Source: Spirochaetia bacterium | GTDB taxonomy: Bacteria; Spirochaetota; Spirochaetia; CADAEX01 | Length of the DNA: 64,000 nucleotides | Direction of reading: 5' to 3' | NCBI GenBank assembly: GCA_031548835.1 | Contig: JAVBQS010000110.1 | Location: forward strand, 110-64,109 | Shown: positions 28,633 through 63,753 of the stretch, in pieces | How positions within the stretch are numbered: the first letter of the stretch is position 1 | How the letters are laid out: each line of letters starts with the position of its first letter | Program-made: the position numbers and the translations under genes | Notes under the pieces: model-generated | Databases searched by the model: none | What the model was told of the DNA's origin: nothing | The model's input: the letters and a program-made list of their open reading frames with translations, nothing else

Positions 28633-28636
28633 AATT

Positions 28637-32520: not shown

Positions 32521-34758
32521 GTGTTAAAATTTTTAAAAAAATATCAATCATCTTTTGTTTTATCTATTTTATTTTTTGCATTTTATATGCTCATTTTTTA
32601 TAAAATAGATCAATATTCCGGCAGCCGATTTAGTTATTATATTTTTGCATGCGGCAGTTTATTAATTTTGGATATTTGTTTGTTTATAAATATATTTTTT
32701 AGATATCGTGACAAAAAGATTAATAATTTTTTCTTTTATGTCACAACTTTAATTTTTTTTATAATTATTTTATTAACAACAGATTGGATATTTAAGTTAA
32801 ATATTTTTACATCAAATTATAAATTTAAAATAATAATATTGTTTTTTCAGCTATTATATATTTTTATTATTTTGGGATATTTTATTGGAAAAAGTATTTT
32901 TAACGCTGAACTTTTTCCAAAGAGTGAAAAAATAAAAATTACTCAAATAATAAGTGTTGTTTTATATATCAGTTTGATTCTTTTTCTTATGACACCTTTG
33001 AGATTATATGCAACATCGCCCGGAGAAGTTGAAATAGCTTTTATTAGTCTTTTAAAAGCATGTGTTATTAATTTTGTTATATCTTTAATTATCCTTTTTT
33101 TTGTATTTTTTATATTTCCAGGATTTTTAAAAAAGTATTTAACAGTGTTTTTATATTTTACAGCAGGGTTCATCTTTTTTTACATATTTATTTTTCCTGC
33201 AAATTATGGAGCTCTTGATAATTTTGTGTTGAAAAATGCGGATAATCTTTATGGCGTATTTTATAAAAATGTAATAGAAGCATTTTTTATAATTTTGTTA
33301 TGGCATGTAGTTTTATATTTTATTAATCATAAAAAAATAAAAATTCTGGCAATTGCTTTTTTTATACTTTCTGCAGTTGCTTCAATAGAATCTGTTGTTG
33401 TTTTTGCTAAAGGAAAAAGTTTGCTTTCTGTAAATAATACAAATAATACAAATAATACAACTGGAGACCTTCTACCTGCTTACAATTATAAAATGATGGG
33501 ATATTCCAGAACAGGAAAAAATATTGTTGTTATTCTTTTTGATATGATGACAGGCGGTGATATTCCGAGAATTTTTAAAGAACATCCTGAATTGGCAGAG
33601 ACATATAATGGATTTATATGGTATCCAAACACGCTTACTGTTGGCGACAATACAGCAACAAGTATGGCGTCAATGTATGGTGGGAAAATATATTCGCCGG
33701 CAGAAATCAATAAGAATAATTTTAACAAATCACTTCTTGAGATTATTACAGAAAGTTATGAAGTATTGCCTAATTTACTAAAAGAAAAAAATTATGTAAC
33801 AGCTTATACAAATCCGGAATATTATTTTTCTCCGCGTGGAGATGTTGATGTTTTAAATAAAAAAGGAATTATAGCAGGTTTTAATAAAGATTATGTTCCA
33901 TATTGGAAAAATATAAATCGAGAAAAGGAAGAATATGTTGCCAAATTTGATACGACATCAATCCGTCTTCTTACAATGGTTTCGTTATTTAAAGCTTCTC
34001 CTGTTTTATTAAAATCAATTATTTATGATAATGGAGATTGGCTGATTATCGAAAAAGATGAGATAAAAAATAAAGCATATAATTTTGCTCTTGAATCCTG
34101 GGCTTTTCTCGATCTTATGAAAGATATATCAAATACAAATGAAACTCAAAATACTTTTAAATATTTTCATAATTATATTACACATGAACCATATGCAATG
34201 AGCAAAGAAGGTGTTTTACAAAAAGAAGAATATCCTGACCCATCTGCGGGCGATAATATTCATGGGGATAATGCATATTACAGTGCAAAAGCTGCTATTT
34301 TAGCAACTGCAAGGTGGATTGATTGGCTGAAAAAAGAAAAAATTTATGATAATACAATGATAATTCTTGTTTCTGATCACGGGCACCCATTTACTGAAAG
34401 TCCTATGATAACTCCTGATTTTAAAAATCAGGATATTACAAGCAATATTTTTACAAGATCTCAGGCATTTTTAATGGTTAAAAAATTTAATAATGATAAA
34501 GATTTTAAAACAGATTGGAGGTTCATGAGTAATGGAGATATTCCCTCAATTATTTGTGAAGCTGCAGGTATTTATAATGAAAAAATTGGCAAAGATCCGA
34601 CAACAGGAGAACCATTGCAAAATAGAGTTCTTGATACTTTTCGTACAAAAAGTTGGCGGTGGGAACATCTTGTCCGGAGTTCTAAATTTGATGTGGTATG
34701 GCACTATCAGGTAAAAGACTCTATATTTAATGATAAGAATTGGACTAAAATTAAATAA
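32521..34758 (+). CDS. Large polytopic membrane protein with C-terminal alkaline-phosphatase-superfamily phosphotransferase domain (paralog 3)
   Basis: GTG start. Motifs: 'YSRTGKNIVVILFDMMTGGDIP', 'YPNTLTVGDNTATSMASMYGG' (EptA-like Thr nucleophile context), 'ITHEP', 'MIILVSDHGHP', 'FMSNGDIPSII'. Contains an in-frame 9-bp x3 tandem repeat. Confidence 0.6.
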   Translation: MLKFLKKYQSSFVLSILFFAFYMLIFYKIDQYSGSRFSYYIFACGSLLILDICLFINIFFRYRDKKINNFFFYVTTLIFFIIILLTTDWIFKLNIFTSNYKFKIIILFFQLLYIFIILGYFIGKSIFNAELFPKSEKIKITQIISVVLYISLILFLMTPLRLYATSPGEVEIAFISLLKACVINFVISLIILFFVFFIFPGFLKKYLTVFLYFTAGFIFFYIFIFPANYGALDNFVLKNADNLYGVFYKNVIEAFFIILLWHVVLYFINHKKIKILAIAFFILSAVASIESVVVFAKGKSLLSVNNTNNTNNTTGDLLPAYNYKMMGYSRTGKNIVVILFDMMTGGDIPRIFKEHPELAETYNGFIWYPNTLTVGDNTATSMASMYGGKIYSPAEINKNNFNKSLLEIITESYEVLPNLLKEKNYVTAYTNPEYYFSPRGDVDVLNKKGIIAGFNKDYVPYWKNINREKEEYVAKFDTTSIRLLTMVSLFKASPVLLKSIIYDNGDWLIIEKDEIKNKAYNFALESWAFLDLMKDISNTNETQNTFKYFHNYITHEPYAMSKEGVLQKEEYPDPSAGDNIHGDNAYYSAKAAILATARWIDWLKKEKIYDNTMIILVSDHGHPFTESPMITPDFKNQDITSNIFTRSQAFLMVKKFNNDKDFKTDWRFMSNGDIPSIICEAAGIYNEKIGKDPTTGEPLQNRVLDTFRTKSWRWEHLVRSSKFDVVWHYQVKDSIFNDKNWTKIK
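33434..33460 (+). repeat. In-frame tandem repeat (aataataca)x3 encoding NNT-NNT-NNT
   Basis: Exact 9-bp triplication inside paralog 3, in the linker between the membrane and catalytic domains. Confidence 0.8.
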
Positions 34759-34809: not shown

Positions 34810-36228
34810 ATGGAAAATTTAAATTTTAACAATATTCATGTGATTGTTATAGGCGATATAATGCTTGATATTTATTACTATGGAAAAGTAAGCAGGCTCT
34901 CTCCCGAAGCTCCTGTTCCTATTGTAAAAGTTGATCATACTACTTATACCCCAGGCGGCGCTGCAAATGTTGCTGTAAATATTTCAGATGCCGGGGCATC
35001 TCCATTCTTGTTGGGATATGCAGGTAACGATGATAACAGGAAAAAACTTGAAAAACTGGCAAATGATAAAAAAATAAATTTTAATTTTATATCAGTAAAA
35101 AATCCTACAATAACAAAAGCAAGAATTATAGGCGAACGCCAACAGATTGTAAGAATGGATTTTGAAGATGCAATGGAAAATAACAGAGAAGCTGAAAATC
35201 TGTTAAAAAAAGCATTCCAGGAACAGGTGGAAAAAAAATGTGATGCAGTTATCTTATCTGACTATGGAAAAGGAATTTGTTCTGAAGAGTTTTGCCAATT
35301 TGTAATAAAAATATGCAATGAAAAAGACATTCCTACAGTAGTTGATCCTAAAGGAACAAGCTGGGAAAAATATTCAGGCAGCTATATTGTCACTCCAAAT
35401 TTTTCCGAGTTCAAGGCAATGGTTGGTAAAGAAATATCCAACAGTGATGAAGATATGGAAAAGCATGTGGCTGGTATTGCAAAAAAATATAATCTGCAAA
35501 AACTGCTTGTGACAAGATCAGAAAAAGGAATGAGCTGTTTTGACGGAAAATCAATAATCCACATGCCTACAAAGGCAAAAGAAGTATTTGATGTATCAGG
35601 CGCAGGCGATACTGTTGTAGCTATTTTATCTGTATGCCTTGGCGCAAAATTTAATCTTGAAGAATCGCTCCTGGTTGCAAATAAAGCAGCAGGCATTGTT
35701 GTGGGAAAACTGGGAACAGCATCTGCTACTGTTGAAGAAATTGAAAAATCTTTTGATGATGATGAAAGGAAAAAAGTTATAAATATAAATGATCTTGAAA
35801 ATGTTGTTAGCAGCTTGCGAAGAAGAGGGAAAAAAATAGTTTTTACCAACGGGTGTTTTGATATTGTACATGCAGGCCATGTAAAAGTTTTAAAAGAAGC
35901 AAAATCCTTCGGCGATATTCTTATTCTTGGGCTTAACAGCGATTCATCAATTAAAAAGCTTAAGGGAGAATCCAGGCCTATAAACAATCTTGCAGACAGG
36001 CTTATAGTTTTAACAAATTTTTCTTTCATAGATTATGTTGTTGTTTTTGATACAGACACACCTCTTGAAATAATTAAAAAAATAAAACCAGATGTTCTTG
36101 TAAAAGGCGGGGATTATTCTGTTGAAACAGTTGTGGGCCATGAATATGCAAAAGAGGTAAAGCTTGTAAAATTTCTCGAAGGATATTCAAGCACAAATAT
36201 AATAAAGAAAATACAGGGGAGACAATAA
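34810..36228 (+). CDS. hldE: Bifunctional D-beta-D-heptose 7-phosphate kinase / D-beta-D-heptose 1-phosphate adenylyltransferase
   Basis: Domain I 'IHVIVIGDIMLDIYYYGKVSRLSPEAPVPIV' (ribokinase-like). Domain II 'IVFTNGCFDIVHAGHVKVLKEAK' (cytidylyltransferase fold). Confidence 0.9.
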   Translation: MENLNFNNIHVIVIGDIMLDIYYYGKVSRLSPEAPVPIVKVDHTTYTPGGAANVAVNISDAGASPFLLGYAGNDDNRKKLEKLANDKKINFNFISVKNPTITKARIIGERQQIVRMDFEDAMENNREAENLLKKAFQEQVEKKCDAVILSDYGKGICSEEFCQFVIKICNEKDIPTVVDPKGTSWEKYSGSYIVTPNFSEFKAMVGKEISNSDEDMEKHVAGIAKKYNLQKLLVTRSEKGMSCFDGKSIIHMPTKAKEVFDVSGAGDTVVAILSVCLGAKFNLEESLLVANKAAGIVVGKLGTASATVEEIEKSFDDDERKKVININDLENVVSSLRRRGKKIVFTNGCFDIVHAGHVKVLKEAKSFGDILILGLNSDSSIKKLKGESRPINNLADRLIVLTNFSFIDYVVVFDTDTPLEIIKKIKPDVLVKGGDYSVETVVGHEYAKEVKLVKFLEGYSSTNIIKKIQGRQ

Positions 36229-38741: not shown

Positions 38742-39839
38742 ATGAAAAAAATTATGAAATATTTCAATCTTTTGAAAATATATATAGAGCGGATACTTTA
38801 TTTTGCAGTGCAGAGCCTTTTTTTTAATAACAGAAACAGCAATCCTGAAAATATTAAGAATATTGTTATAGTGCGGCTTAATCACATAGGCGATCTTTTT
38901 ATTTCATTATCTTCGATATACAGCCTGAAGGAGAAATTTCCTGAAGCTAAAATAACACTTGTAACAGGAATCTGGAACAAAGGGCTTGTTGAATTTCAAA
39001 ACCAGCTTTTTGATAATGTATATTATTATAATCTAAAAAAAAATTGCAGAAGCAAAAATCAGAGAATGTCTTTAGCTCAGCGTTTTGGAATATTAAAAAA
39101 AATTAAGAAAGAAAATTATGATCTTTGCGCTGATTTTGACGGGTCACTGGGCTTTCTGTTTTTATATATCTTTTCAAAAATAAAATACCTTTCCACAGCC
39201 AGATACCTGAGATTTAACCAAAATCTTGAGCAGCTTAAAATAAGAAAAAACAAGTTTAATTATGATGTCAATAACAGCTATGAAGGAGATAATATTTTTG
39301 AAGTTGTTAGACAATTTTCAGTAGAAGATAAAAGAAATCAGTTTAAGCTTGAAATAAACAGCAAAATTAAAAATAAAATTGAAGCTTTTTTTAACACAAT
39401 TAACCAGGGGAAAAAAGTTGTAGGAATCCATCCTGTTGCATCTATAAAAGAAAAAATGTGGACAGCAGAAGGATTTGCCAGGCTTTGTGATTTTTTGATA
39501 AGTAAAAAAGATTTTTCTGTTATAATTTTTGGAGCAAAAGATGATACTCCATATATAGAAGAGATAGCTGAAAAAACAGCATATAAGGAAAACATTAATA
39601 TTCAAACCTCTTTTAATATTGGCGAATTTATAACAGCTGTTTCTTATTGTAATTATTTTATTTGTCTTGATAGCCTTGCGCAGCATATAGTTCAATATTT
39701 TAATATGCCTTCCCTAATAATATATATGAGTGAAAATTCAGTACGCTGGAGCAAATCCGGCAATAATATAAAGACAGTTTTACTTAAAGATAAAACAGAC
39801 TATAATAATATATTTGAAAAACTTTCAGATTTTAACTAA
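38742..39839 (+). CDS. Glycosyltransferase family 9 (LOS heptosyltransferase-like)
   Basis: 'NIVIVRLNHIGDLFISLSSIYSLKEKFPEAKITLVTG' is a GT9 N-terminal signature. Confidence 0.7.
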   Translation: MKKIMKYFNLLKIYIERILYFAVQSLFFNNRNSNPENIKNIVIVRLNHIGDLFISLSSIYSLKEKFPEAKITLVTGIWNKGLVEFQNQLFDNVYYYNLKKNCRSKNQRMSLAQRFGILKKIKKENYDLCADFDGSLGFLFLYIFSKIKYLSTARYLRFNQNLEQLKIRKNKFNYDVNNSYEGDNIFEVVRQFSVEDKRNQFKLEINSKIKNKIEAFFNTINQGKKVVGIHPVASIKEKMWTAEGFARLCDFLISKKDFSVIIFGAKDDTPYIEEIAEKTAYKENINIQTSFNIGEFITAVSYCNYFICLDSLAQHIVQYFNMPSLIIYMSENSVRWSKSGNNIKTVLLKDKTDYNNIFEKLSDFN

Positions 39840-39866
39840 AACCTTGTAAAAGGAATATAATAATAC

Positions 39867-40955
39867 ATGAAAAAAATTATTCTTTGGCTTGTGCGGCAAA
39901 TTTTAAGCAAATGCTTAAAATTTAAAATAATACTATGTACAAAAAATATCTCTTTAGAAAATAGAAAAAAAATATTATTGATCAATCTTCATGGAATAGG
40001 CGATCTTGTAATGGCAACTCCTGCAATTGAGCTCTTAAAAATAAACTATCCTTATTCGGAAATTGACTTGCTGGTATCTGCGCCTGCTGCTATTCTTTTT
40101 AAAGATGATCCAAGAATAACGCATATATGTGAATTTATAAACAAAAAACCGCTTACCAGTATCAGAAATATAACAGAAAAATATGATACTGTTATTCTTT
40201 TTATAGGCGGCATATGGGGAACAATTGCTGCTTTATCTATAAAATCAAAAGAAATAATGGGAATGGCATTAAATACTACGTTAGCTGCTGTGTGGAAAGA
40301 TGAAAACAACAAGATAGTTGTTAGGAGATTTAATGAAAAAACACATTTAAGCAATTTAATGATAAATGCAATAAAGCCAATTATAAAAACAGAAAACAAA
40401 GATATAAATGAATATAAATTATATATAAATTATAATAATATCAATATAGAAAAATTTAATTTAAAAAAACCGTATATAGTTATAGCGCCTGAAACAAACT
40501 GGGATATAAAAGAAATTAAAGAGCATTTAATTATAGAACTTATTGCCTATTACAAAGAAAGAAATATTTCTGCTGTTATTATAGGGCAGCGAAAAAAAAA
40601 TATATCAGAAATAAATGATTTGAGAGGAAAAACAACACTGCTTGAAGCAGCAAAAATTATAAAAAATTCAGAATATGTTATATCTGCAGATAGCGCTTTT
40701 ATGCATATATCTTCTGCTTTGGGAAAACCTGTTTTTTCTATATTTGGGCCAACAGATCCTGAAAGATTGGCGCCTTTTGGAAAAAGTATTATTTTTAGAA
40801 AAAATATTTACTGTTCTCCATGCTATAAAGAAATTTATATACCTAAATGTCTTAATCTTGAATATAATCTCTGTATGAAATGGTCTTTGAATGATCTAAA
40901 AAAAGAGCTAGAGTTATTTGAAGAAAAACAGGTTCAGCAAAATGGACAAAATTAA
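39867..40955 (+). CDS. Glycosyltransferase family 9 (LOS heptosyltransferase-like), second copy
   Basis: 'ILLINLHGIGDLVMATPAIELLKINYPYSEIDLLVS' is a GT9 signature. Contains an A10 tract. Confidence 0.7.
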   Translation: MKKIILWLVRQILSKCLKFKIILCTKNISLENRKKILLINLHGIGDLVMATPAIELLKINYPYSEIDLLVSAPAAILFKDDPRITHICEFINKKPLTSIRNITEKYDTVILFIGGIWGTIAALSIKSKEIMGMALNTTLAAVWKDENNKIVVRRFNEKTHLSNLMINAIKPIIKTENKDINEYKLYINYNNINIEKFNLKKPYIVIAPETNWDIKEIKEHLIIELIAYYKERNISAVIIGQRKKNISEINDLRGKTTLLEAAKIIKNSEYVISADSAFMHISSALGKPVFSIFGPTDPERLAPFGKSIIFRKNIYCSPCYKEIYIPKCLNLEYNLCMKWSLNDLKKELELFEEKQVQQNGQN

Positions 40956-43247: not shown

Positions 43248-43817
43248 ATGGAGGCAGCAGTGGAATTAATTGATAATATTGTTGAAGACCATAAAAAGAC
43301 AGTTGAATTTGTAAAAAAAGAGGCTGTTGTTTTAGAAAAAATAGCTTCTGTTATTATAAATGCATTTAAAAATGGGAATAAAATACTTTTTGCCGGAAAT
43401 GGTGGAAGCGCTGCAGATAGCCAGCATTTTGCTGCAGAGATAACAGGCAGGTTTAAAAAAGAGAGAAGAGGGCTTCCGGGAATATCGCTTACTGTTGATA
43501 CTTCTGCATTAACTGCAATAGCAAATGATTATGGATATGATAATGTCTTTTCAAGGCAGGTTGAAGCGCTTGCAAAGCCTGGAGATGTTTTTGTCTGCTT
43601 TTCCACATCAGGAAACAGCCCCAATATACTTAAAGCTGCTGAAAAAGCGCTTGAAATCGGCTGTGAAACAATAGGCTTTTTGGGAAAAGATGGAGGCACT
43701 ATAAAAAATAAATGCAATATTTCATTTATTGTGCCAGCATCGGTGACTGCCAGAATACAGGAAACTCATTTACTTGCCTATCATATAGTATGTGAGCTTA
43801 TTGATAATTCTTTTTAA
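43248..43817 (+). CDS. gmhA: Phosphoheptose isomerase (SIS domain)
   Basis: 'KILFAGNGGSAADSQHFAAEITGRF' and 'VFVCFSTSGNSPNILKA' are GmhA hallmarks. Confidence 0.85.
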   Translation: MEAAVELIDNIVEDHKKTVEFVKKEAVVLEKIASVIINAFKNGNKILFAGNGGSAADSQHFAAEITGRFKKERRGLPGISLTVDTSALTAIANDYGYDNVFSRQVEALAKPGDVFVCFSTSGNSPNILKAAEKALEIGCETIGFLGKDGGTIKNKCNISFIVPASVTARIQETHLLAYHIVCELIDNSF

Positions 43818-43840: not shown

Positions 43841-44974
43841 ATGGCTTTTTTTCTTAAATTAATAATTATTATAATAACTTTTCTTTTTATACCTTTTTCA
43901 TGCGGTAACTTTACAGGATTTGAGAGTATAGGCGAACCAGATACAGGCAATATAAGAAAAATAAAATTATATTTAAGCCAGGATGATATGGAAAAGCTTT
44001 ACAATTCATTATCTGAAGATGACTATGCGCATTGTGTTTATAAAAAAGGATCAGGAGTTATTGATGCTTGGATAAAAATAAGAGGAGATGTTTCACGCAG
44101 TTATCCAAAAAAGTCATTTACATTAAGATTTGAAAATTCTGAAAAAGAGCGTTATGCGCTAACAGCTTCTTTCAAAGACCCGTCATATGTCAGAAATATG
44201 ATTGCTTTTGATATTTATAGGGAGTTTATACCTGGAATACCTGAGACAGAATGTATTGCTCTTTTCATCAATGATAATTATATAGGATATTATACTAAAA
44301 TAAAATTATATAATGAAAATGATTTAAAAAAATATTATGGAAATTTCCAGCTTTTTAAATGTAAATTTGACAATATGGGAAGTGATTTTCCGCTCCATTA
44401 TCTTTCAGAAAAAGAATTTCCTGATGATGATAATTTTTCATTCCTTGATCAGCTTATCTCATGTGCAAAATATATGAATGATGATGATTGGAATGATTTT
44501 GTAAATAGAAAATTTGATATTGAAAAAACAGCATTATATATTGCAGTACATAATTATCTTGCAGTCACAGATACTACAACAAAAAATTTTAATGTAATAT
44601 ATAACGGCAAGTATTCTTTTTTGCCATGGGATCATGAGGCAAATATGGGAAGAAGTTACAGTGGAACAGAAACAGAAACAACAAGCTATCCTTTTGAAGG
44701 AGATAACATGCTTATGAGGCGGCTTCTGCAAAAAGGTTCTCCTGTAAGGGAAAAATATAAAGAATTTATTAATGATCCTGTATTTATTGCTAAAATGAAA
44801 AACAGAGCAGAAAATAAACTTTCTCAATATGGCAAAGATATTGACAGGGCTGTTTATTATGATTCAAATAAATATTATAAATACAATGATTTTATAAATG
44901 AAATTTCTTCTCCTGATGGATATATCTATAAATTTTTACAGCAGAGAGAAAGCGAAATTCCAATCTTGGAGTAA
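43841..44974 (+). CDS. CotH-family (atypical kinase) protein, secreted/lipid-anchored
   Basis: 'AWIKIRGDVSRSYPKKSFTLRF' and 'LPWDHEANMG' resemble CotH signatures. N-terminal signal ending in Cys-Gly. Confidence 0.6.
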   Translation: MAFFLKLIIIIITFLFIPFSCGNFTGFESIGEPDTGNIRKIKLYLSQDDMEKLYNSLSEDDYAHCVYKKGSGVIDAWIKIRGDVSRSYPKKSFTLRFENSEKERYALTASFKDPSYVRNMIAFDIYREFIPGIPETECIALFINDNYIGYYTKIKLYNENDLKKYYGNFQLFKCKFDNMGSDFPLHYLSEKEFPDDDNFSFLDQLISCAKYMNDDDWNDFVNRKFDIEKTALYIAVHNYLAVTDTTTKNFNVIYNGKYSFLPWDHEANMGRSYSGTETETTSYPFEGDNMLMRRLLQKGSPVREKYKEFINDPVFIAKMKNRAENKLSQYGKDIDRAVYYDSNKYYKYNDFINEISSPDGYIYKFLQQRESEIPILE

Positions 44975-48815: not shown

Positions 48816-50165
48816 GTGATAAAAAAAAGGAATTTTTTGAAAGATAGGAATTTATATTATTATTTTTCAAAATTATTTAATATTACTTCTTTTCAAAAAT
48901 TAATAGTCAGCCTATCTATTTTTCTTTTTATCTCATGTGTGACAACAAATAAGCAGGATTCTGTCCAGGAAAAAAAAGCAGCGCAATCAGCAGAAACTGT
49001 ATCTGCAAATAGTTCAAAAGAGAACAATGTGTTAAAGGGAGAAAGTGCAGCGCAGCCAACTCCGAAAAATCATTTTACACAAAAAGAGATGGAACTCTTT
49101 TATAATAATGTATTGGGGAAAAAAATTATAATAAAAAATAAGAAATTCCTGCCTGTAACAGATAATAAAAAACCTGTTTTTATTAATTGTGATTGTGATA
49201 ATGACGGCTATACAGAATTCTATGTTTTATTCACAGAAAGTATTTCTGAAAATGATGTTTCAATAGATAATGTGAGCGATTTGCGTAATATTTACAGGGA
49301 AGATATTTATCTTAGAGAATTTCTTATATCAGTATATAAATATTATGAAACTAATGAAGAGAAAAAATTTATTAATGAGCAAAATATAATTTTGGAAGGA
49401 AAAGGGGCATTTTCTTCTTTAAAAGAGATAGAGATAGATAAAAATAGTAAATTTTATGGAATATCTGTAAATTTTATAACAAGTGTGGGCACGCATGAAG
49501 ATCTAGTTATTAATAGAAGGGGAAGATGTTCAATAACAAGTATAAAAAATACTATTTCAGATTCAACAAGAAAAGATGATATAGATTACAATGGAGTCCT
49601 TGACCTTATACGTTATGAAAGGGTTTTTGTAGACGGGTTTGGCGTTGAAACTTTTATAACCTGGTATAAGTTTAGTGGTGAAAAATTTTTGCCAGTTAAA
49701 ACAGTAAATACAGTAAAAGATCTCCGTTCTTTTATTAAAGATTCGCAGCTATATCTTGAAACAAAAAAGATCGACCTTTTTATTAAAAATACAATTTCTC
49801 CCCCTGTTTTAAAAAAGCTTAGTTTGGCAAAAATAAGTTCAGATAAAATATTGCAGAGAATTTTTTATCCAGTAAAAAGAGAATCTTCATTTTTAATTGA
49901 TATAAATACAATGCTTTCATCAAACGAAAATATTGATTTTATTTTCCCTGAAATATTTGAAAATCCTTTTAGGATGGATAGCGATGGAGTATATAGCTTT
50001 ACTACTTATGTAAGAGTCTTGCTTAAAGATGGTAATATGCCTCTGCCGCAGGAAAATAAAGATTCTGCTGGCGAAAATGCGGCAAATGAAGAGATTTACC
50101 TTGTAAAAATATATATGGCGCATAATCCTTTTGAAGACAGAAGGTTTTTCTTTTTTGTTAACTGA
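48816..50165 (+). CDS. Hypothetical lipoprotein
   Basis: Hydrophobic segment ending in 'LFISC' (relaxed, spirochaete-like lipobox). No recognised domains. Confidence 0.35.
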   Translation: MIKKRNFLKDRNLYYYFSKLFNITSFQKLIVSLSIFLFISCVTTNKQDSVQEKKAAQSAETVSANSSKENNVLKGESAAQPTPKNHFTQKEMELFYNNVLGKKIIIKNKKFLPVTDNKKPVFINCDCDNDGYTEFYVLFTESISENDVSIDNVSDLRNIYREDIYLREFLISVYKYYETNEEKKFINEQNIILEGKGAFSSLKEIEIDKNSKFYGISVNFITSVGTHEDLVINRRGRCSITSIKNTISDSTRKDDIDYNGVLDLIRYERVFVDGFGVETFITWYKFSGEKFLPVKTVNTVKDLRSFIKDSQLYLETKKIDLFIKNTISPPVLKKLSLAKISSDKILQRIFYPVKRESSFLIDINTMLSSNENIDFIFPEIFENPFRMDSDGVYSFTTYVRVLLKDGNMPLPQENKDSAGENAANEEIYLVKIYMAHNPFEDRRFFFFVN

Positions 50166-50247: not shown

Positions 50248-52995
50248 TCAGGATTTAGTTTTTACCAGTTGTAATGGATAGATCATTGTAAATGATAAAC
50301 CTTTGCCTGGATTATTTTTAATTCTTATTTTGCCATTATGCTTTGAAAGCAGCGCAGCTACAGCAGAAAGCCCAACCCCGCGGCCGCTTATTATCGATAC
50401 CTCTTCTTTGGAGCTGTATCCTGGTTTAAATATATTTTTTAGCAGAATTGCATTGTCTAACTGCTGTGCCTGGTCTTTTATAATTCCTTCTTTCTCCATC
50501 TTTTTTCTGATTTTATTTATATCCAAACCTTTTCCATCATCTGCTACAATAACAAAAAAATTTCCTGCTTCTATTTTTAAAGAGACAGATATAGTTCCTG
50601 TTTCATCTTTTCCCTGAAGCATCCGTTCCATCGGCGGTTCAATTCCATGATCAAGACTGTTATTTACCATGTGTACAAGAGATTCTTTAATATCTTTTAA
50701 TATAGTAATTTTTTCAGGCGAATTAATTTCATGAAAAAAGATAAGCTCTGCTTTTTTCCCTAAAGCTTCAGCATTTTTGTGTATTGTTTTTTCAAGCAGC
50801 TTTTCTATTCTTTCTATTGGCCCGTCTTTTTTTACACTTTTTTCTTTATAGTTTTTATTTACATAATCTAGTAATTTTTCCCTAAGATCTTTTATCCTTT
50901 TAAATTCTGCAATTATTGTATCCAGTTTTTGTATAAAGATTTTTCCAGTTTCATTAGCATTACCTTTTTCTGCAGGCATGTAATAAGCAATAACAATATT
51001 TTCATTATGCTGTTTAAGAGAAGACTCTGCTTCGTGAATTATCCATGAAAGAGTTGTTAATTCCAGCAAGCCGCTAAGTCCTTTTAAAGAATGCAGTTTA
51101 TTAAATATTTTATTATATTCTTCGCTATCTTTTAGAAAATCTTTATTATTGGCAGAGTTATAAATTTCATAGATAGAGCTTTCTGCATCTTCAATAAATT
51201 CATCCATATCTGCCGAATTTGTTTCCAGAAGGCGTGCAATAATTTCAATTTCTCCCTGGTCTCTGGTATTTTTTTCATCTATTTGTGCCTGCAGCTGAAT
51301 TGTTTCTGTCTGGTCAGAAACAAAAACAATAATATTGGTAGAACCTTCAGGAGTTTTGATCTGTTTAAATCTTGCAGAAATATATTTTTCTTCATATCCT
51401 GTGCCAGAGCTTTTACTTGGCACAACAATTTTTGCTAATCTCAATGGATTAATATCTTCAAACATTGAGATATCGCTGTTAATATTTTTTAATAATAATT
51501 TAAGAAATTTTTCAAGATCTTTGCTGTCCTGGCTTTCAGTATCAGGATAGAATAAAGAAGCAAGAGAGCGCCCTTTGATTATTGAAGTTCCAAATATTTT
51601 TTTAACTGCTTCAGAATAAAGATCTCCCATATTAAGATCTTCATTTACAATAAGCATTCCTTCATCCATATTATCAAGATATTTACGGTTTTCATGGTTA
51701 ATCCATGTCATAAAATCTTTTTCAGTTTTAAGATAGTGATGACAGTTTTCAGGAAGGTTAAGCCTGTTATAGATAGCTTCTGCCATTCCCTGGCAGGTAA
51801 AATATCCGCAAGCAGAGCAATTAAGCATATCTGTCTGTGAAAATTTATTCATTTGCTCATATATGGATTTAAGCTCTTTTTCACCCGGTATTTTATACGT
51901 TACCAGACTGCTTGAATTTTTATAACTGCGTTTGTAAAGCTCCGGCTTCCAGTATTTGTCTATTGAATCATTTAGATTATTGCCTTTGGAAAAATTTTTA
52001 TATTTTTCTATTTTCTCTTCTTTTCTTTTTTCAACCCTGGCTTCAAGCCTGTCTATAGGCTGGTTGTAGTTTCCTGTGCCGGGGCCGCCGTTACATCCTG
52101 CAGCACAGTTAAGGCAGTCTATAATAAATGGAACAGTGTTTTCTTTTACCATCTGCGGAATTTCGTTTAGATACTTAAAAACAATTTCAGGGCCTTCGAT
52201 ACGGCGTATTTTATTATTGATCTCAGGAGCATCCCGCGTAACTGTTTCTTTTAATCCTCCAGGACTTGAAAAAATAACTGCGCGTTCTGCCCCTGGGCCG
52301 TCATGGGGTAAATCTTCAAATAGGCCGAAATCTATTTTTTGCTCCTCTATAGCCTCTTTGAGGCGGATCATTGTAACATTGTAATAGATTAACCCTGTCT
52401 CTTCAAATTCGCGTGTTTTTGCTGTGCAGGGAGAAATAGCAGCTATTCGGGCATCTTTATATTCAGGAAAAAACTGCTTTATCATAATTGCAGTGTGAAG
52501 CATAGGGCTATGTGCAGGAGGCAGATATTCGAGAAGTTCAGGTTTATATATTTCGCAGTAACGCACAAGAGCAGCGCAGGGCTGAGCAATTATTGTTTTT
52601 GGTTTTTTTGCTTTTGCATATTCCAGATATGATTTTACTGTTAATTCAGCTCCGAAAGAGACATCAAATACAGCCTTTACTCCAATTGATTTTAAATAGC
52701 TGTTCAGTTTTAATAAATTTTCATTAAAAACAGCAGCAGCAGAAGGAGCTACTATAGCAACAATTGGAATATTTGCAGCAAGATCAGAAAAAAACTGATC
52801 TGTATCATCTGCTATTGAACGGGCATCCTGCCTGCAGGCAGGAATACAGCGGCCGCATCCTATACACCTTTCAGCAATAATAGAAACTTTATCTTTTGAA
52901 CCATCAATACAGGTTTTTACAGGGCATACAGAAATACAGGAATGGCAGTTATTGCATTTTTCATCATCTACCTGAATAAGTTTTTTCAATTCCAA
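50248..52995 (-). CDS. Sensory [FeFe]-hydrogenase (HydS-like) fused to PAS-like region and CheA-type HPt plus HATPase_c kinase core
   Basis: N-terminus has 2x[4Fe-4S] motifs (CNNCHSCISVCP; CIGCGRCIPAC). H-cluster domain: 'VAIVAPSAAAVF', 'FDVSFGAELTV', L1 'AQPCAAL' (TSCCP with the proton-relay Cys replaced by Pro), L2 'ISPCTAKTREFE', L3 'DCLNCAAGCNGG'. Extra exact 'Cx2Cx4Cx16C' motif (CSACGYFTC-16 aa-C). HPt 'HSLKGLSGLLEL'. CheA-P4-like 'VNNSLDHGIE...IVADDGKGLD...ISGRGVGLSAV...GKGLSF'. No CheW-like domain. TTG start with an AAGGTGGTG SD. Confidence 0.75.
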   Translation of the reverse strand: MELKKLIQVDDEKCNNCHSCISVCPVKTCIDGSKDKVSIIAERCIGCGRCIPACRQDARSIADDTDQFFSDLAANIPIVAIVAPSAAAVFNENLLKLNSYLKSIGVKAVFDVSFGAELTVKSYLEYAKAKKPKTIIAQPCAALVRYCEIYKPELLEYLPPAHSPMLHTAIMIKQFFPEYKDARIAAISPCTAKTREFEETGLIYYNVTMIRLKEAIEEQKIDFGLFEDLPHDGPGAERAVIFSSPGGLKETVTRDAPEINNKIRRIEGPEIVFKYLNEIPQMVKENTVPFIIDCLNCAAGCNGGPGTGNYNQPIDRLEARVEKRKEEKIEKYKNFSKGNNLNDSIDKYWKPELYKRSYKNSSSLVTYKIPGEKELKSIYEQMNKFSQTDMLNCSACGYFTCQGMAEAIYNRLNLPENCHHYLKTEKDFMTWINHENRKYLDNMDEGMLIVNEDLNMGDLYSEAVKKIFGTSIIKGRSLASLFYPDTESQDSKDLEKFLKLLLKNINSDISMFEDINPLRLAKIVVPSKSSGTGYEEKYISARFKQIKTPEGSTNIIVFVSDQTETIQLQAQIDEKNTRDQGEIEIIARLLETNSADMDEFIEDAESSIYEIYNSANNKDFLKDSEEYNKIFNKLHSLKGLSGLLELTTLSWIIHEAESSLKQHNENIVIAYYMPAEKGNANETGKIFIQKLDTIIAEFKRIKDLREKLLDYVNKNYKEKSVKKDGPIERIEKLLEKTIHKNAEALGKKAELIFFHEINSPEKITILKDIKESLVHMVNNSLDHGIEPPMERMLQGKDETGTISVSLKIEAGNFFVIVADDGKGLDINKIRKKMEKEGIIKDQAQQLDNAILLKNIFKPGYSSKEEVSIISGRGVGLSAVAALLSKHNGKIRIKNNPGKGLSFTMIYPLQLVKTKS

Positions 52996-53028
52996 GTTAC
53001 ACCACCTTTAGCAAGAGAAATAGGAAGT

Positions 53029-53481
53029 CTATTCTTTTATAGAAACATAGATATTGATACGGCCATACTTGGTTGTAAATGGAATAGCAATAACAGGCAC
53101 GCTGTTGCCCCATGCAAATTTATAGGAATCGCCAAATACAACTCCAGGCAGAGATATCTCTATCCGCTGTTCAAGATATTGCTTTGCTGTTCCTGCAATT
53201 ATATTAACCATTTCGCCTACAACGCCTGCAACTTCTTTGGTAACAGCGCGGTATGTCATTCCGCCGAAAATAGATGCCAAAGCTATTGCTGTATCACGTG
53301 AAAAATTCAAAACAACCTGTCCTCTTATTTCACCGGCAAGTCCTATAATTGCAGATATTCCCTGAATTTCCTCAGGTTTTTTTTCTATATAAGCCCTGTG
53401 GGGCTCAACTTCTATTTCAAGATATTCTTTAAAAAAAGTCATTGATGATTTTATAAATGGATTAATATAGTCAACTTTCAT
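53029..53481 (-). CDS. cheX: CheX-like CheY-P phosphatase (CheC/CheX/FliY family)
   Basis: 150 aa. 'DYINPFI' N-terminus; CheX-like length and pattern. Located between cheY and the kinase. Confidence 0.7.
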   Translation of the reverse strand: MKVDYINPFIKSSMTFFKEYLEIEVEPHRAYIEKKPEEIQGISAIIGLAGEIRGQVVLNFSRDTAIALASIFGGMTYRAVTKEVAGVVGEMVNIIAGTAKQYLEQRIEISLPGVVFGDSYKFAWGNSVPVIAIPFTTKYGRINIYVSIKE

Positions 53482-53533
53482 GTTTATTCTCCATGCAGAA
53501 ACAATATCTGATACTAAAACTCTTTTAAATAGC

Positions 53534-53902
53534 TTATTCCAGATAAGGTTTAATTTTTGTCCATAAAATATTGGCTTTTATTGGTTTAAGGACATAATTT
53601 GTAACGCCGGCTTCAATAGCTTCCATAACATTGTATTTGCCGCCTTCTGCCGTTACCATAACTATTGGCGTTGTTTTGTATTGGGTCATGCTTCTGATTT
53701 TTTGAACCAATTCAAGGCCATTCAAATTCGGCATATTCCAATCTATCAGAAATAGGCTTATTTTATTGCCTGCAATTTTTTCCAATGCTTCATTTCCATT
53801 ACCGGCCTGAATAATATCTTCCGGTTTAATTCCATGCTCGACAAGAATATTGATATGAATTCTTCTCATAACATCAGCATCATCGCAAACTAAAATTTTC
53901 AT
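53534..53902 (-). CDS. cheY: CheY-like single-domain response regulator
   Basis: 'MKILVCDDADVMRR...LFLIDWNMPNLNGLELV...YVLKP'. 122-aa receiver only, with the phospho-Asp context 'LIDWNMP'. Confidence 0.85.
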   Translation of the reverse strand: MKILVCDDADVMRRIHINILVEHGIKPEDIIQAGNGNEALEKIAGNKISLFLIDWNMPNLNGLELVQKIRSMTQYKTTPIVMVTAEGGKYNVMEAIEAGVTNYVLKPIKANILWTKIKPYLE

Positions 53903-54196
53903 TTTATATACCTGTTCTCATATAGCAATAGTATGATTAAGGGAAAACCCTAGTCTCACCTAAATTTAAACATAATATTTAAATTATTAAAAAGTGACAA
54001 TAATAAAGAGAAAGATTTTTTAAAAAATTAACTTTTGATAATTTTTAGAAAAAATTTTGTTATTTGATATAAAATTGATTTCCTGAATTTTGAGAATAAT
54101 TAATTGAGGCTGTTTTTTGTTTTACCTCTGTTGCTTTTGCTAACAGATGATTTTGACAACATTGACAACCAATTCTTTAAAATGTAAATTCCAAAC

Positions 54197-55480
54197 ATGT
54201 GCAGATACTTTGTTGATGGTTCTTTCCCAATAAGCGGTAAAATAAAGGCAAGCGGTAATAAAAATGCAGCTCTTCCATGTATTGCTGCGGCTCTTCTTTC
54301 TGATGGAGAAGTAATTCTTGAAAATATTCCTGAAATTGAAGATGTCTCTGTAATGCTCTCTATTGCTTCCAAACTTGGAGCAACTGTTAAAAAAATCAAA
54401 TCAAATGAATATTCAATAAAAAGCGATAATATAAAATCAGAACTTCCTAATGAAGAAGCAAAAACAATAAGAGCTTCCATTCTTTTTGCAGGCCCTTTGC
54501 TTGCAAGAACAGGAAAGGCTATTTTGCCTCCTCCTGGAGGAGATGTAATCGGCAGGCGCAGGCTTGATACACACTTTATTGCTTTTAGCGATCTTGGTGT
54601 AAGAATAGAAGTTGATGGTTTTTTTAAACTTACAGCCAATAAACTGGTTGGCGCAGATCTTTTTCTTGATGAAGCTTCTGTTACTGCCACTGAAAATGCA
54701 ATAATGGCGTCTGTTCTTGCAGAAGGAAAAACTGTTATACAAAATGCAGCATCAGAGCCCCATGTCCAGGATTTATGCAAAATGCTTGTCTCTATGGGGG
54801 CAAAAATATCAGGAATAGGGTCTAACATACTTTCCATTGAAGGAGTAAAAAAGCTTGCCGGCACAAAATATAAGATTGGAACAGATTTTATAGAAGTGGG
54901 ATCTTTTATAGGCCTTGCTGCTGTCACGCGCGGCGAACTTGAAATTGAAGGAGCATCTCCTTCTGATCTTAGAATGACTAAAATTGCTTTTGCAAAGCTT
55001 GGAATACATTGGGAAACAAATGGATCATCAATTAAAATAAATCCGGGACAGGGGCTTAAAGTTGTTCCTGACTTTGGCGGCCAGATACCTCAAATTGATG
55101 ATGCTCCATGGCCGGGATTTCCGCCAGATCTTACAAGTATTATTACTGTAGTGGCTACCCAGGTTGAAGGAACAGTCCTTATACATGAAAAAATGTTTGA
55201 ATCAAGGATGTTTTTTGTAGACAAACTTATAGGAATGGGAGCAAAAATTATTTTATGCGATCCCCACAGAGCTGTTGTAAGCGGTCCTTCGAGGCTTAAA
55301 GGAAGCCATCTTGTTTCGCCTGATATAAGAGCTGGAATGGCAATGGTTATTGCAGCTCTTTGCGCAGAAGGAAAGAGTGAAATAAGAAATGTGTACCAGA
55401 TTGAACGGGGATATGAAAATCTTGTTGCGCGTCTTAAAAAACTGGGCGCAAAAATAGAAAAAAAAGATTCTGATTGTTAA
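54197..55480 (+). CDS. murA: UDP-N-acetylglucosamine 1-carboxyvinyltransferase
   Basis: '[25 protein letters not shown]' parallels the E. coli MurA N-terminus. Active-site loop '[15 protein letters not shown]' (Cys115 replaced by Asp, as in some lineages). Confidence 0.9.
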
Positions 55481-58988: not shown

Positions 58989-59540
58989 TTACCCGAGAAA
59001 AACCTGTCCATTATTATCAATAGCAAGAATTGTTTTACATTCAGAACATCTGAATCTGCCAGGCTTGGTAGCTTTAAGTTTTCTTGAACATATAGGACAC
59101 TTAAATATTTTGGGAAATAGTTCTGATGATTTTTGGGGATTTCCCTTATTAAAGAATTCTATAGCATCATCGAAAGAATCTTTGATATTAAAAAATTGAG
59201 AAAATCCAAGCAGCTGAAAAACTTCATAAACTTTGGGCTGTATTTCAAGCAGAACAATATCTCCGCCTCTTGGCTTTACTGTTTTAAGAAATGCTGTAAA
59301 TGAACCTATACCAGTACTTGATACATAATTGAGGCCATTGCAATTAAAGATTAACTTTATAAACCCTGTATCAACAGCTTTTGCAATCCTTTTTTGAAAG
59401 GAGTTAGAGTTATATGTATCTATATAGCCTGTAAGATATATTACAAGGCATTTGTTGTCAGTCTCAACTTTTTGTAACCTGATTTTCAGACTATCATCTT
59501 TTTCATCATCAAATCCTGGCACTATTTCATTATTTGACAT
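58989..59540 (-). CDS. STAS-domain (anti-sigma-factor-antagonist-like) protein with C-terminal zinc ribbon
   Basis: 'LVIYLTGYIDTYNSNSFQKRI...LNYVSSTGIGSF' STAS pattern. C-terminal 'CPICSRKL...CSECK'. Confidence 0.6.
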   Translation of the reverse strand: MSNNEIVPGFDDEKDDSLKIRLQKVETDNKCLVIYLTGYIDTYNSNSFQKRIAKAVDTGFIKLIFNCNGLNYVSSTGIGSFTAFLKTVKPRGGDIVLLEIQPKVYEVFQLLGFSQFFNIKDSFDDAIEFFNKGNPQKSSELFPKIFKCPICSRKLKATKPGRFRCSECKTILAIDNNGQVFLG

Positions 59541-61914: not shown

Positions 61915-63753
61915 CTATTTTTTCTTTTTTGTTTCTGTGCTGTGCGGTTCTTTTTTGGGAATCAGCGCTTTGGGGTGGTTTCCTATTAAATCTCTGCGGC
62001 CTGCTTTTTCAAGAGCTTTTCTTACAAGATAATAGTTTTCAGGCTTATGAAAATGCAGAAGAGCTTTCTGCATTCTTTTTTCCTCTTCTGCAGCAGGAAT
62101 ATATATTTTTTTAAGTGTAAGAGGATCAAGCCCTGTATAATACATGCAGCTTGAAAGAGTTCCTGGAGTCGGGTAAAAATCCTGAACCTGATCCGGGATA
62201 AATTTATTTTCTTTAAGATATAGGGCAAGTTCTATTGCATCTTCTATTGTTGATCCGGGATGTGATGAAATAAAATATGGAATAACATATTGTTTTTTTC
62301 CCAGCCTAGTATTTTCTTTTTTAAATTTTGATAAAAATTCTTCATAGATTTTTCTTTTTGGTTTTCCCATAAGTGCAAGAACATTATCTGACACATGCTC
62401 CGGCGCTACTTTAAGCTGCCCGCTTATATGGTGTTTGCAAAGCTCTTCGAGAAAATTTCCCTCTTTTCCTGAAATAACATCAGGGTCAAGCAGCAGATAA
62501 TCAAACCGTATGCCTGATCTTATAAATACTTTTTTTACTTTATCCAGCTTTCTTAATTTTCGCAGCAAAGCAATATAGTCTTTATGGCTTGCCTCAAGAT
62601 TCTTACATGGAGAAGGTGTAAGGCATCTTCTTTGACAGCAGCCTTTTTCAATTTGTTTTTTACAGGAAGGATTTCTGAAATTTGCTGTAGGCCCGCCTAC
62701 ATCATGAATATAGCCTTTAAAATCTTCCATGCTTGTAATTTGCCTTGCTTCATCCAGAATAGAATCATGGCTTCTTGCAGATATTCTTTTTCCCTGGTGG
62801 AAAGTAATTGAACAAAAACCGCAGCTTCCAAAACAGCCGCGCGAGCTTGTTATGCTGAATTTTATTTCTGATAGAGCAGGAACTCCGCCCTCTTTATTAT
62901 AGGATGGATGTGCTTCCCTTGTGTATGGAAGAGCATATACAGCATCAAGTTCTTCATTTGCAAGAGGGAATGATGGTTTGTTTTGAATTACATATTGCTC
63001 CCCTGTTTTTTCAGCAATAACAGAAGCAGTTAAAGGATCGCTGTTTTTATAGGCAGCAGCAAAATTTTCAGCAAACATTTTTTTATCTTTTAATACTTCT
63101 TCATAAGAGTTAAGAAGTATAGTTTCTGGTTCTTCCGGCTTTTGGGAAGACCTAAAGACAGTTCCTCTTACATCTGTAATAGACTTAATATTTTCGCTTT
63201 TTTTAAGTCTTGCAGCTATCTCTTTTATGCTGTTTTCTCCCATTCCATAAACAAGAATATCTGCCTTGGAATCAATAAGTATGCTCCGCCTTATGCTATT
63301 GCTCCAGTAATCATAGTGGGCAAGCCGTCTTAGCGATGCTTCAAGCCCGCCAAGTATAACTGGAATATTGCTGTATGCCTGCCTGATTGCTGATGTATAT
63401 GCTATAAGAGCCCTGTCCGGCCGTTTATCAGCTATTCCTCCTGGAGAATAAAGATCTTCTTTTCTCTTTTTTTTAAATGAAGTATATTTTGCAACCATTG
63501 AATCAATGTTGCCTGAAGTTACGAGAAATCCCAATTCCGGGCGGCCGAAAATTTTAAATGCTTCAGAATCTTTCCAGTCAGGCTGTGCAATAACTCCTAT
63601 ATGGTAGCCTTCTTTTTCAAGCACCCTTGATATAATTGCAGCTCCAAATGAAGGATGGTCTACATAGGCATCTCCTGTGACAAGTACAAAATCAACACTG
63701 TCCCAGCCTTTTTTTTTAGCATCAGCCATGCTGACCGGCAGAAAATTTTTCAT
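61915..63753 (-). CDS. ygiQ: YgiQ-family radical SAM protein (UPF0313)
   Basis: 'DFVLVTGDAYVDHPSFGAAIISRVLE' N-terminus. Radical-SAM 'SRGCFGSCGFCSI'. Length 612 aa. Confidence 0.85.
   Translation of the reverse strand: MKNFLPVSMADAKKKGWDSVDFVLVTGDAYVDHPSFGAAIISRVLEKEGYHIGVIAQPDWKDSEAFKIFGRPELGFLVTSGNIDSMVAKYTSFKKKRKEDLYSPGGIADKRPDRALIAYTSAIRQAYSNIPVILGGLEASLRRLAHYDYWSNSIRRSILIDSKADILVYGMGENSIKEIAARLKKSENIKSITDVRGTVFRSSQKPEEPETILLNSYEEVLKDKKMFAENFAAAYKNSDPLTASVIAEKTGEQYVIQNKPSFPLANEELDAVYALPYTREAHPSYNKEGGVPALSEIKFSITSSRGCFGSCGFCSITFHQGKRISARSHDSILDEARQITSMEDFKGYIHDVGGPTANFRNPSCKKQIEKGCCQRRCLTPSPCKNLEASHKDYIALLRKLRKLDKVKKVFIRSGIRFDYLLLDPDVISGKEGNFLEELCKHHISGQLKVAPEHVSDNVLALMGKPKRKIYEEFLSKFKKENTRLGKKQYVIPYFISSHPGSTIEDAIELALYLKENKFIPDQVQDFYPTPGTLSSCMYYTGLDPLTLKKIYIPAAEEEKRMQKALLHFHKPENYYLVRKALEKAGRRDLIGNHPKALIPKKEPHSTETKKKK

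Follow-up and report, generated by a model that had tools for sequence, protein, structure and literature searches.

Within a 64,000-nucleotide stretch of DNA from a Spirochaetia bacterium (CADAEX01; assembly GCA_031548835.1, contig JAVBQS010000110.1, positions 110-64,109 of the forward strand; the window), a 915-residue protein joins a sensory [FeFe]-hydrogenase module to a PAS-Hpt-P4 kinase core of CheA type, and its gene forms a unit with cheX and cheY (Table 1). We read this cheY-cheX-hydS::kinase unit as a self-contained signalling system, in which H2 or redox state would gate a receptor-independent kinase for CheY, with the motor as the likely target; the reading is given a probability of about 60%.

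The hydrogenase-type sensor module

The N-terminal half contains two ferredoxin-type [4Fe-4S] motifs followed by an H-cluster domain, in which all four ligand cysteines are kept. C140, C190, C297 and C301 align with the L1, L2 and L3 cysteines of solved [FeFe]-hydrogenases (C300, C355, C499 and C503 in CpI numbering), and K193 corresponds to K358. In L1, AQPCA aligns on TSCCP, which places Pro139 at the proton-relay cysteine (C299) next to the retained ligand Cys140. L2 (AISPCTAK on MPCxxK) keeps C190 and K193 and has Ser for M353, and L3 (DCLNCAAGC on ExMxCxxGC) keeps C297 and C301 and has Leu for M497. The proton-pathway helix of group A enzymes (E279/E282) is deleted in the HMMER alignment to the solved enzymes. 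Beyond the H-domain, C393-x2-C396-x4-C401-x16-C418 exactly reproduces the Cx2Cx4Cx16C accessory-cluster motif; this motif and the loss of C299 have been described as hallmarks of sensory [FeFe]-hydrogenases (PMC8163306). The sequence features of group C (HydS-type) enzymes are present, namely N-terminal [4Fe-4S] motifs, the H-domain cysteines, the loss of C299, the accessory motif and a PAS domain after the accessory cluster. By its nearest relatives, the sensor module groups with the C2-like proteins that are fused to methyl-accepting chemotaxis proteins (MCPs).

A first-pass annotation, made from the sequence alone, had already described a full H-cluster domain without the proton-relay cysteine and an exact accessory motif; residue-level alignment agrees, as do the spacing from C393 to C418 and the PF04060 match. 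It had also named a cluster-less scaffold of the Nar1/NARF kind, lacking H-cluster ligands, as the N-terminus that would speak against it. Such a scaffold is ruled out, since the four H-cluster cysteines and K193 are present and invariant.

The PAS, Hpt and P4 kinase module

The protein continues into a divergent PAS domain, an Hpt domain and an ATP-binding domain. Pfam profiles return Fer4 twice, Fe_hyd_lg_C, FeS (PF04060), Hpt and HATPase_c, in this order. The PAS domain, which the first-pass annotation implied, lacks a Pfam match in the window protein and is supported by other means: a 30-sequence family profile matches the FixL PAS (E 3e-5), and weak matches to PAS_9 and PAS_4 occur in 11 and 6 of the 30 relatives, respectively. 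An AlphaFold model of residues 425-915, built from 39 family members (mean predicted local distance difference test score, pLDDT, 84), shows a cap helix, a PAS-like unit (446-561; strand-strand-helices-three-strand, pLDDT about 90), a helical bundle holding H635 and E657, a long helix (674-715) and a P4 fold, in that order.

The phospho-acceptor H635 (codon 51091-51093) lies within HSLKG and forms a triad with K638 and E657; hhalign puts the Hpt domain on CheA P1. The ATP-binding domain has the N (NSLDHGIE, 779-786), G1 (DDGKG, 819-823), F (FKPGYSS) and G2 (GRGVG, 871-875) boxes. Its ten best PDB matches are all CheA P4 (E 2e-29, residues 726-911), the protein ending four residues later, at 915, and the best-scoring NCBIfam models for the kinase are CheA. 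In Foldseek the P4 part matches CheA P4 with template modelling scores of 0.8-0.9, and the whole chain loosely resembles LOV-histidine-kinase chimeras. A generic HATPase_c domain of a classical kinase is rejected on these matches. The Hpt and HATPase_c assignments, whose failure as kinase domains would have told against the first-pass annotation, are upheld, and so is its claim of an HPt domain and a CheA-P4-like ATPase without a CheW-docking P5, on which Pfam, PDB and hhalign agree.

The alignment of the kinase family with 16 canonical CheA proteins is highly significant (hhalign probability 100%, E 1e-60) and colinear over P1 and P4 only. A gap covers CheA P2 and most of P3, no P2 being found in the window kinase, and the aligned columns stop at 500 of the 644 in CheA, short of P5. 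The P3 profile (PF02895, H-kinase_dim) finds no match in the kinase at E up to 0.1, and the PDB match begins at the P3/P4 border; the P5/CheW-like profile (PF01584) has no match in the kinase either. In a 2023 survey, P1, P3, P4 and P5 were present in 100% of CheA homologues, and CheA was described as lacking an input domain (PMC10782961). The window protein has the P1-type Hpt and P4 domains; it lacks P3 and P5 and carries an input of its own, a 425-residue sensor module plus PAS. The kinase is CheA-derived yet outside the CheA definition, because colinearity is confined to P1 and P4 and because P3 and P5 are absent. A true CheA is rejected on the same absences, and a bipartite CheA with P5 encoded downstream is rejected because the next gene is convergent and without a Pfam match.

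CheX and CheY partners and their recurring linkage

The CheX protein matches solved CheX structures, including that of Borrelia crystallised with CheY3 (3hzh_B), and E90 and N93 align with their conserved Glu and Asn. CheY has D7, D8, D54, T84, Y103 and K106, within the motifs DWNMP, MVTAEG and YVLKP where these apply. Its best PDB match is H. pylori CheY1 (5e-30), and 49 of the 50 best are CheY or homologues, the remaining one being a de novo designed protein; by these matches it is closest to motor-binding CheYs. Against the NCBIfam CheY model it scores 95 bits, under the 189-bit equivalog cut-off. CheX and CheY are 83% and 89% identical to their Breznakiella counterparts.

A search with the C-terminal half uncovers a PAS-Hpt-P4 family without P3 or P5, found mainly in Treponema and relatives. 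Its N-terminal inputs are diverse: multi-pass membrane segments, HAMP, PilJ, periplasmic binding, GAF, cNMP-binding and extra PAS domains. All 39 members of the kinase family that were compared share H635, E657 and the residues of the N, G1 and G2 boxes, and at least 90% of them also have K638. In seven fused homologues (37-78% identity), invariance extends to the eight F-cluster cysteines, the four H-cluster cysteines, K193 and the four accessory-cluster cysteines, as well as to H635, K638, E657, the N, G1 and G2 boxes and the QPC of L1. Outside the spirochaetes, Burkholderia gladioli and related Betaproteobacteria (P0156/P0161, 77 member sequences) have a P5-less protein of 4HB_MCP-HAMP-PAS-like-Hpt-P4 architecture, in which the same CheA-like core is joined to a periplasmic sensor of chemoreceptor type.

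The order of the genes varies, while the partners recur. In the window and P0002 the order is cheY-cheX-kinase; in both Alkalispirochaeta species and P0240 it is kinase-cheX-cheY with overlapping stops and starts; P0243 has kinase-cheX and P0258 kinase-receiver. In P0041, P0052 and P0242, CheX is fused to the C-terminus of the kinase, and a receiver gene directly follows P0041 and P0052. In total, CheX (fused or neighbouring) and/or a neighbouring single-domain receiver is linked to 10 of the 11 CheA-type fusions examined. Kinases without a hydrogenase module show the same linkage: a response regulator (RR) gene, cheX and the kinase follow one another for P0005 and P0124, and P0121 has RR-kinase. 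The triad is thus a conserved cassette with an exchangeable input domain, as the linkage recurs in hydrogenase and non-hydrogenase kinases. The window gene draws attention to CheA-like kinases without P5 and with inputs of their own, a little-noticed family linked to CheX and CheY.

Where CheX is fused (P0041, P0052, P0242/P0384; L006 6001-9747 and L065 631-4335), a single chain would both phosphorylate CheY and dephosphorylate it. One such CheX-fused hydrogenase-kinase comes from a metagenome-assembled genome (MAG) of Latescibacterota, outside the spirochaetes.

Probable origin by domain swap, and selection

The two halves of the protein have different nearest relatives. In Breznakiella homolactica (CP067089.2, L005), a single locus holds a sensor::MCP gene and, 3 kb downstream, cheY-cheX-P0005, where P0005 is a kinase with about five hydrophobic N-terminal segments. 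The window protein is 72% identical to the B. homolactica sensor::MCP over residues 1-427, the closest relative of this half, and from about residue 430 it is 62-65% identical to P0005. The homology breakpoints place the recombination junction at about residues 425-432, just past the last accessory-cluster cysteine. Because the halves match two neighbouring Breznakiella genes, the window gene is best explained by a domain swap, in which the hydrogenase sensor would have replaced the membrane input of a Breznakiella-type kinase.

An identical protein lies on an independent Logan contig (L001), and an orthologue with 78% identity, the same junction and the same synteny comes from an independent sample (L002). 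The gene is under purifying selection. The kinase has a ratio of nonsynonymous to synonymous substitution rates (dN/dS) of 0.12, compared with 0.06 for cheX and 0.04 for cheY, and every kinase domain stays at or below 0.2 except the linker, the least constrained part (about 0.55).

The window has a GC content of 30.6%, against 52.7% for the Breznakiella locus, despite the high identity of CheY and CheX. Its source is a strongly AT-shifted relative, whose lineage may live in association with a host or a protist. The same sequencing run contains another Breznakiella-like organism, of 46% GC (L087/L088; GCA_031549725.1, JAVBPH010000027.1 and a contig of SRR23967709). Its locus, PLD-RR-P0121-SBP, in which P0121 is a membrane::PAS-Hpt-P4 kinase, is syntenic with PLD-cheY-cheX-P0005-SBP of B. 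homolactica and has no cheX. P0121 was considered as a same-genome paralogue of the window kinase and rejected, as 46% GC against 31% marks a different organism.

Outputs to which the sensor is fused

A full-length search gave 3456 proteins at E up to 1e-10, and architecture was read in the best 120. These comprise 84 sensor::MCP fusions, eight sensor::adenylate cyclase fusions and seven sensor::CheA-like kinases (P0001, P0002, P0013, P0039, P0041, P0043 and P0052), and most come from termite-gut spirochaetes (Breznakiella, Termitinemataceae, Treponema). Fusions to PP2C and to classical kinases also occur among relatives of the sensor. In an exhaustive profile search over 1.84 billion representatives, of which the best 150 clusters were considered, the complete sensor-PAS-Hpt-P4 architecture is found in seven, all ranked at the top (P0001, P0043, P0052, P0240, P0242, P0243, P0258). 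About 50 of these 150 clusters pair the sensor with a classical kinase; all four that were checked with Pfam are PAS-HisKA-HATPase_c, two of them with a receiver. Of about 15 billion sequences, each of the eight CheA-type clusters that were looked up contains one or two. Fusion of the sensor to an output is therefore ordinary, given the abundance of MCP, HisKA and cyclase partners, whereas a CheA-type output, with seven clusters, is rare. 'Full-length' tblastn matches in MAGs of Bacteroidota and others (L021, L044, L070) were rejected as instances of the fusion, since they are separate genes or classical kinases.

These counts revise the first-pass annotation in part. It had held that HydS proteins end after the PAS domain; across sequence space, fusions to MCP, HisKA, adenylate cyclase and PP2C are the rule. 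The tabulation of fused and separate homologues that it proposed shows MCP fusions dominating and CheA-type fusions few. Its suggestion that the fusion is novel holds only in a narrower form. HydDB has listed putative group C1 'histidine kinase-linked', C2 'chemotactic' and C3 'phosphatase-linked' enzymes since 2016 (PMC5037454), and C1 enzymes with a fused HATPase_c have been pointed out (PMC11406978). For a hydrogenase::CheA-type fusion, or for the P5-less cheX/cheY cassette, no description was found in the searchable literature, which did not cover two key older papers. What appears undescribed is thus only that the kinase is of CheA type and is partnered by CheX and CheY, and the window gene is a rare variant within the sensory [FeFe]-hydrogenases already proposed to be coupled to signalling domains.

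Two further groups among the sensor relatives deserve mention. Fusions to class III adenylate/guanylate cyclases (P0022, P0032, P0036, P0049, P0053-55, P0061) predict H2-dependent cyclic nucleotide signalling in termite-gut spirochaetes. Proteins of about 700 residues (P0008, P0009, P0011, P0048 and similar) consist of the sensor and the same divergent PAS, followed by 130-300 residues without a Pfam match.

Proposed mechanism

The soluble 915-residue protein would carry two relay [4Fe-4S] clusters, the H-cluster and a C-terminal [4Fe-4S] cluster. Binding and splitting of H2 would be slow and the reduced state long-lived, as in the characterised sensory enzymes TmHydS of Thermotoga maritima and TamHydS of Thermoanaerobacter mathranii; slow turnover is expected because the proton-relay cysteine is missing (Pro139-Cys140) and the pocket methionines are replaced by Ser and Leu. 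The change of state may pass through C418 and the helix 426-441 into the PAS domain, which would set the rate at which P4 phosphorylates H635 of the Hpt domain. The phosphoryl group would then move from H635 to D54 of the presumably co-transcribed CheY, from which CheX would remove it, giving a fast and reversible output. The likeliest target of CheY-P is the flagellar switch. In this manner H2, or the redox poise that it sets, could bias swimming with no need for chemoreceptors, CheW or adaptation by methylation, and an output free of receptors and methylation would track the absolute level of the signal and not its change over time.

The domain anatomy, the conserved ligand and catalytic residues, the gene linkage and the purifying selection are observed. 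That the cofactors are loaded, that H2 is the signal and with which sign the system responds, that the adjacent CheY receives the phosphate and that the motor is the target are predictions from sequence. The maturation of the cofactor and the motility of the host are likewise only predicted, because the window holds neither hydE, hydF or hydG nor flagellar genes. The first-pass annotation had anticipated a receptor-independent H2/redox phosphorelay to CheY, perhaps reaching the motor: the anatomy and the linkage fit, and the relay itself is a plausible prediction.

Several observations weigh against the unit being an H2-gated motor pathway. In the 64-kb window, no catalytic hydrogenase, no maturase and no flagellar or other che genes are seen. 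There is no recognisable P3 dimerisation domain, which bears on the geometry of autophosphorylation. H2 does not reduce the C-terminal cluster of TamHydS (PMC13104023), and the route of the signal is therefore only proposed. Both cheX and cheY are missing from the neighbourhood of one fused homologue, P0013. H-sensor::MCP proteins are numerous in the same lineages (84/120) and already give them a conventional H2-taxis route. Finally, a single-domain CheY could be a phosphate sink or have a target other than the motor.

A broader proposal is put forward tentatively, with the odds leaning somewhat against it: spirochaetes and a few other anaerobes would possess a second, array-independent route to the motor, made of P1+P4 kinases with their own inputs and their own CheY and CheX. 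In the hydrogenase-fused members H2 would set the level of CheY-P, an adaptation-free 'hydrogen kinesis'. If true, the sensor kinases of this route would be soluble or membrane-bound, and hydrogen kinesis would place cells within the steep gradients of H2 in guts and mats.

Alternative explanations

The strongest competitor, itself unlikely, keeps the sensor kinase and gives it an output unrelated to motility: the CheY-like receiver would shuttle phosphate or serve as its sink, or would control metabolism, hydrogenase expression or another process, as has been suggested for other group C sensory hydrogenases that have catalytic hydrogenase genes beside them. Many chemosensory-like pathways have non-motility outputs, the window shows no flagellar or che genes outside the unit, and P0013 lies near a LytTR transcription regulator. 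Group C enzymes are, moreover, usually discussed as regulators of hydrogenase genes (PMC8163306; PMC11406978; PMC8924675), but a catalytic hydrogenase gene is adjacent in none of the contexts read. The nature of the partners also argues for the motor, as the receiver lacks an output domain and has its best matches among motor-binding CheYs, and CheX is a chemotaxis-specific phosphatase that is even fused to the kinase in three clusters. A doubt of lower probability concerns the input. The N-terminal module might not sense H2 at all and instead report the ferredoxin or redox pool, O2 or CO, or it might be without the [2Fe] subcluster. External redox partners normally dock by way of the two N-terminal clusters, the window lacks maturase genes, the sensory role of group C and D enzymes is still termed putative (PMC8924675) and the C-terminal cluster of TamHydS is unresponsive to H2 (PMC13104023). 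However, a plain redox sensor would not need a conserved H-domain, whose cysteines and K193 are invariant across distant fused homologues, and the pocket substitutions equal those of enzymes shown to bind a functional H-cluster (PMC8163306).

Two modules encoded separately in Breznakiella make up this mosaic gene, which comes from a metagenomic source and could also be taken for an assembly chimera or for a decaying, functionless gene. This is effectively refuted by the independent contigs L001 and L002, which carry the identical protein and the orthologue with the same junction and synteny, and by the low dN/dS of all domains bar the linker. The frame is intact, and the same architecture exists in cultured Alkalispirochaeta genomes, P0043 being an Alkalispirochaeta orthologue. 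An H2- or redox-gated kinase for CheY is the preferred reading.

Comparison with known systems

TmHydS and TamHydS, of groups C (M2f) and D (M2e), share with the window protein the two [4Fe-4S] motifs, the H-domain ligands, the loss of C299 and the Cx2Cx4Cx16C motif, and a PAS domain is common to it and the group C HydS-type enzymes. The pair of replacements M353 to Ser and M497 to Leu is that of TamHydS (PMC8163306). The window protein differs from both in having Pro at position 299. While TmHydS and TamHydS end after the PAS or cluster domain, it adds its own Hpt and ATPase domains and has a defined substrate gene adjoining.

The H-domain::MCP fusions that HydDB lists as C2 'chemotactic (putative)' have a sensor module 50-72% identical to that of the window protein, and they have in common with it the ecological setting and a proposed connection of H2 to motility. 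They would signal through a CheA/CheW array with methylation-based adaptation, whereas in the window protein the MCP is replaced by a kinase and neither array nor CheW is needed. H-domain::MCP fusions of termite-gut treponemes were reportedly described by Ballor, Paulsen and Leadbetter in 2012. The C1 'histidine kinase-linked (putative)' enzymes, with H-sensor::PAS-HisKA-HATPase_c(-REC) architecture, likewise couple the sensor to a histidine kinase. They are class I kinases with a DHp/HisKA acceptor, in contrast to the class II window kinase with its Hpt acceptor, CheA-type P4 and CheX and CheY partners.

The spirochaete che operon (cheA-cheW-cheX-cheY in Borrelia and Treponema) shares with the window the P1-type Hpt with its His/Lys/Glu triad, the P4 fold and boxes, CheY and CheX. 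Compared with CheA, the window kinase lacks P5, P2, a recognisable P3 and a cheW gene, and it has a sensor of its own at the N-terminus. HoxBC, a regulatory [NiFe]-hydrogenase that works with the kinase HoxJ and with HoxA (HydDB group 2b), follows the same logic, as a crippled hydrogenase serves as an H2 sensor that steers a histidine kinase via a PAS-like element. However, its metal site and family are unrelated, its sensor and kinase are separate, and its output is the transcription of hydrogenase genes.

The sensory role of group C and D [FeFe]-hydrogenases is still called 'putative', and identification of their interaction partners has been called critical (PMC8924675, PMC13104023). With a natural single-chain sensor kinase whose CheY substrate and CheX phosphatase are encoded alongside, H2 sensing could be read out directly in vitro. 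Textbooks present CheA as an input-less, array-controlled enzyme, a picture contradicted by a CheA derivative that has shed P3 and P5 and acquired a sensor. H2 is a central intermediate in termite guts, and the proposed pathway, if true, would link it to the behaviour of the dominant motile bacteria there. The value of the finding is tempered by the abundance of HisKA-fused relatives, which are equally suited to a biochemical test, and by the age of the H2-taxis idea, which dates from 2012-2016.

Locus layout and neighbouring genes

cheX and cheY lie upstream of the kinase gene on the same strand, with intergenic gaps of 33 bp (kinase/cheX) and 52 bp (cheX/cheY); coordinates and Pfam matches agree here with the first-pass description of a co-oriented cheX and stand-alone cheY. 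The kinase gene begins with TTG, six bases after AAAGGTGGTG, whereas the database model of the same kinase (P0001, NCBI/Logan) starts two codons later and has 913 residues. The unit stands alone, with a divergent murA on one side and a convergent hypothetical gene on the other. A sigma-70-like promoter match (Table 1) lies in the intergenic region shared with murA, but the sites near cheY in the promoter and terminator scan are not above shuffled expectation, so that this evidence is weak and the scan does not prove an operon. The window has no cheW or MCP gene, and an Rfam scan of it gave no match. Antisense within murA, a 275-residue open reading frame (ORF; 54100-54927, minus strand) of low-complexity composition is almost certainly a shadow ORF and not a gene.

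Table 1. The cheY-cheX-kinase unit, its domains and its borders (window positions; residues refer to the 915-residue protein)
Feature	Coordinates	Strand	Residues	Evidence and details
Sensory [FeFe]-hydrogenase module fused to PAS-Hpt-P4 (CheA-like) kinase	50248-52995	-	1-915	ORF; Pfam, NCBIfam and PDB matches
Two ferredoxin-type [4Fe-4S] motifs	52798-52977	-	7-66	Cys 14, 17, 20, 24 and 44, 47, 50, 54; Pfam Fer4 twice
H-cluster domain	52081-52764	-	78-305	Fe_hyd_lg_C, E 3e-29
Accessory-cluster motif C393-C418	51742-51819	-	391-418 (Pfam)	Exact regex match; Pfam FeS PF04060
Divergent PAS with N-terminal cap helix	51313-51720	-	426-561	Family profile; AlphaFold topology
Hpt (CheA P1-like) four-helix bundle	50980-51216	-	594-672	Pfam Hpt 594-664, E 7e-7
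Helical linker at CheA P2/P3 position	50821-50979	-	673-725	AlphaFold, one long helix (segment residues 250-291), no P3 hairpin
CheA-type P4 ATP-binding domain	50263-50820	-	726-911	Pfam HATPase_c 771-909, E 2e-14
cheX	53029-53481	-		CheY-P phosphatase; E90-x2-N93 motif; Pfam CheX, E 3e-20
cheY	53534-53902	-		Single-domain receiver; Response_reg, E 2e-23
Sigma-70-like promoter match	53972-54000	-		TTGTCA-17-TATTAT upstream of cheY; 10/12 matches
murA (divergent)	54197-55480	+		
Hypothetical gene (convergent)	48816-50165	+		

The first 43 kb of the window (1-43817, plus strand) form a long same-strand cluster of envelope-polysaccharide or lipopolysaccharide-core-like genes. It encodes many GT1, GT2 and GT4 glycosyltransferases, two GT9 heptosyltransferases (38742-40955), UDP-glucose dehydrogenase, epimerases, an HldE-like PfkB+cytidylyltransferase (34810-36228), a GmhA-like SIS protein (43248-43817) and three large sulfatase-family membrane proteins (17781-20405, 28598-30898 and 32521-34758). 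A heptose pathway is unexpected for a Treponema-like spirochaete. Two other genes are unrelated to hydrogenase maturation: one for a CotH-kinase-family protein with an N-terminal signal-like sequence (43841-44974, plus strand) and one for a YgiQ-type radical SAM protein (Radical_SAM_N + DUF3362; 61915-63753, minus strand). Between the unit and the latter, on the minus strand (58989-59540), lies a gene for a STAS protein of the anti-sigma-antagonist type with a zinc-ribbon-like C-terminal CxxC...CxxC tail (KCPICSRK...RCSECKT).

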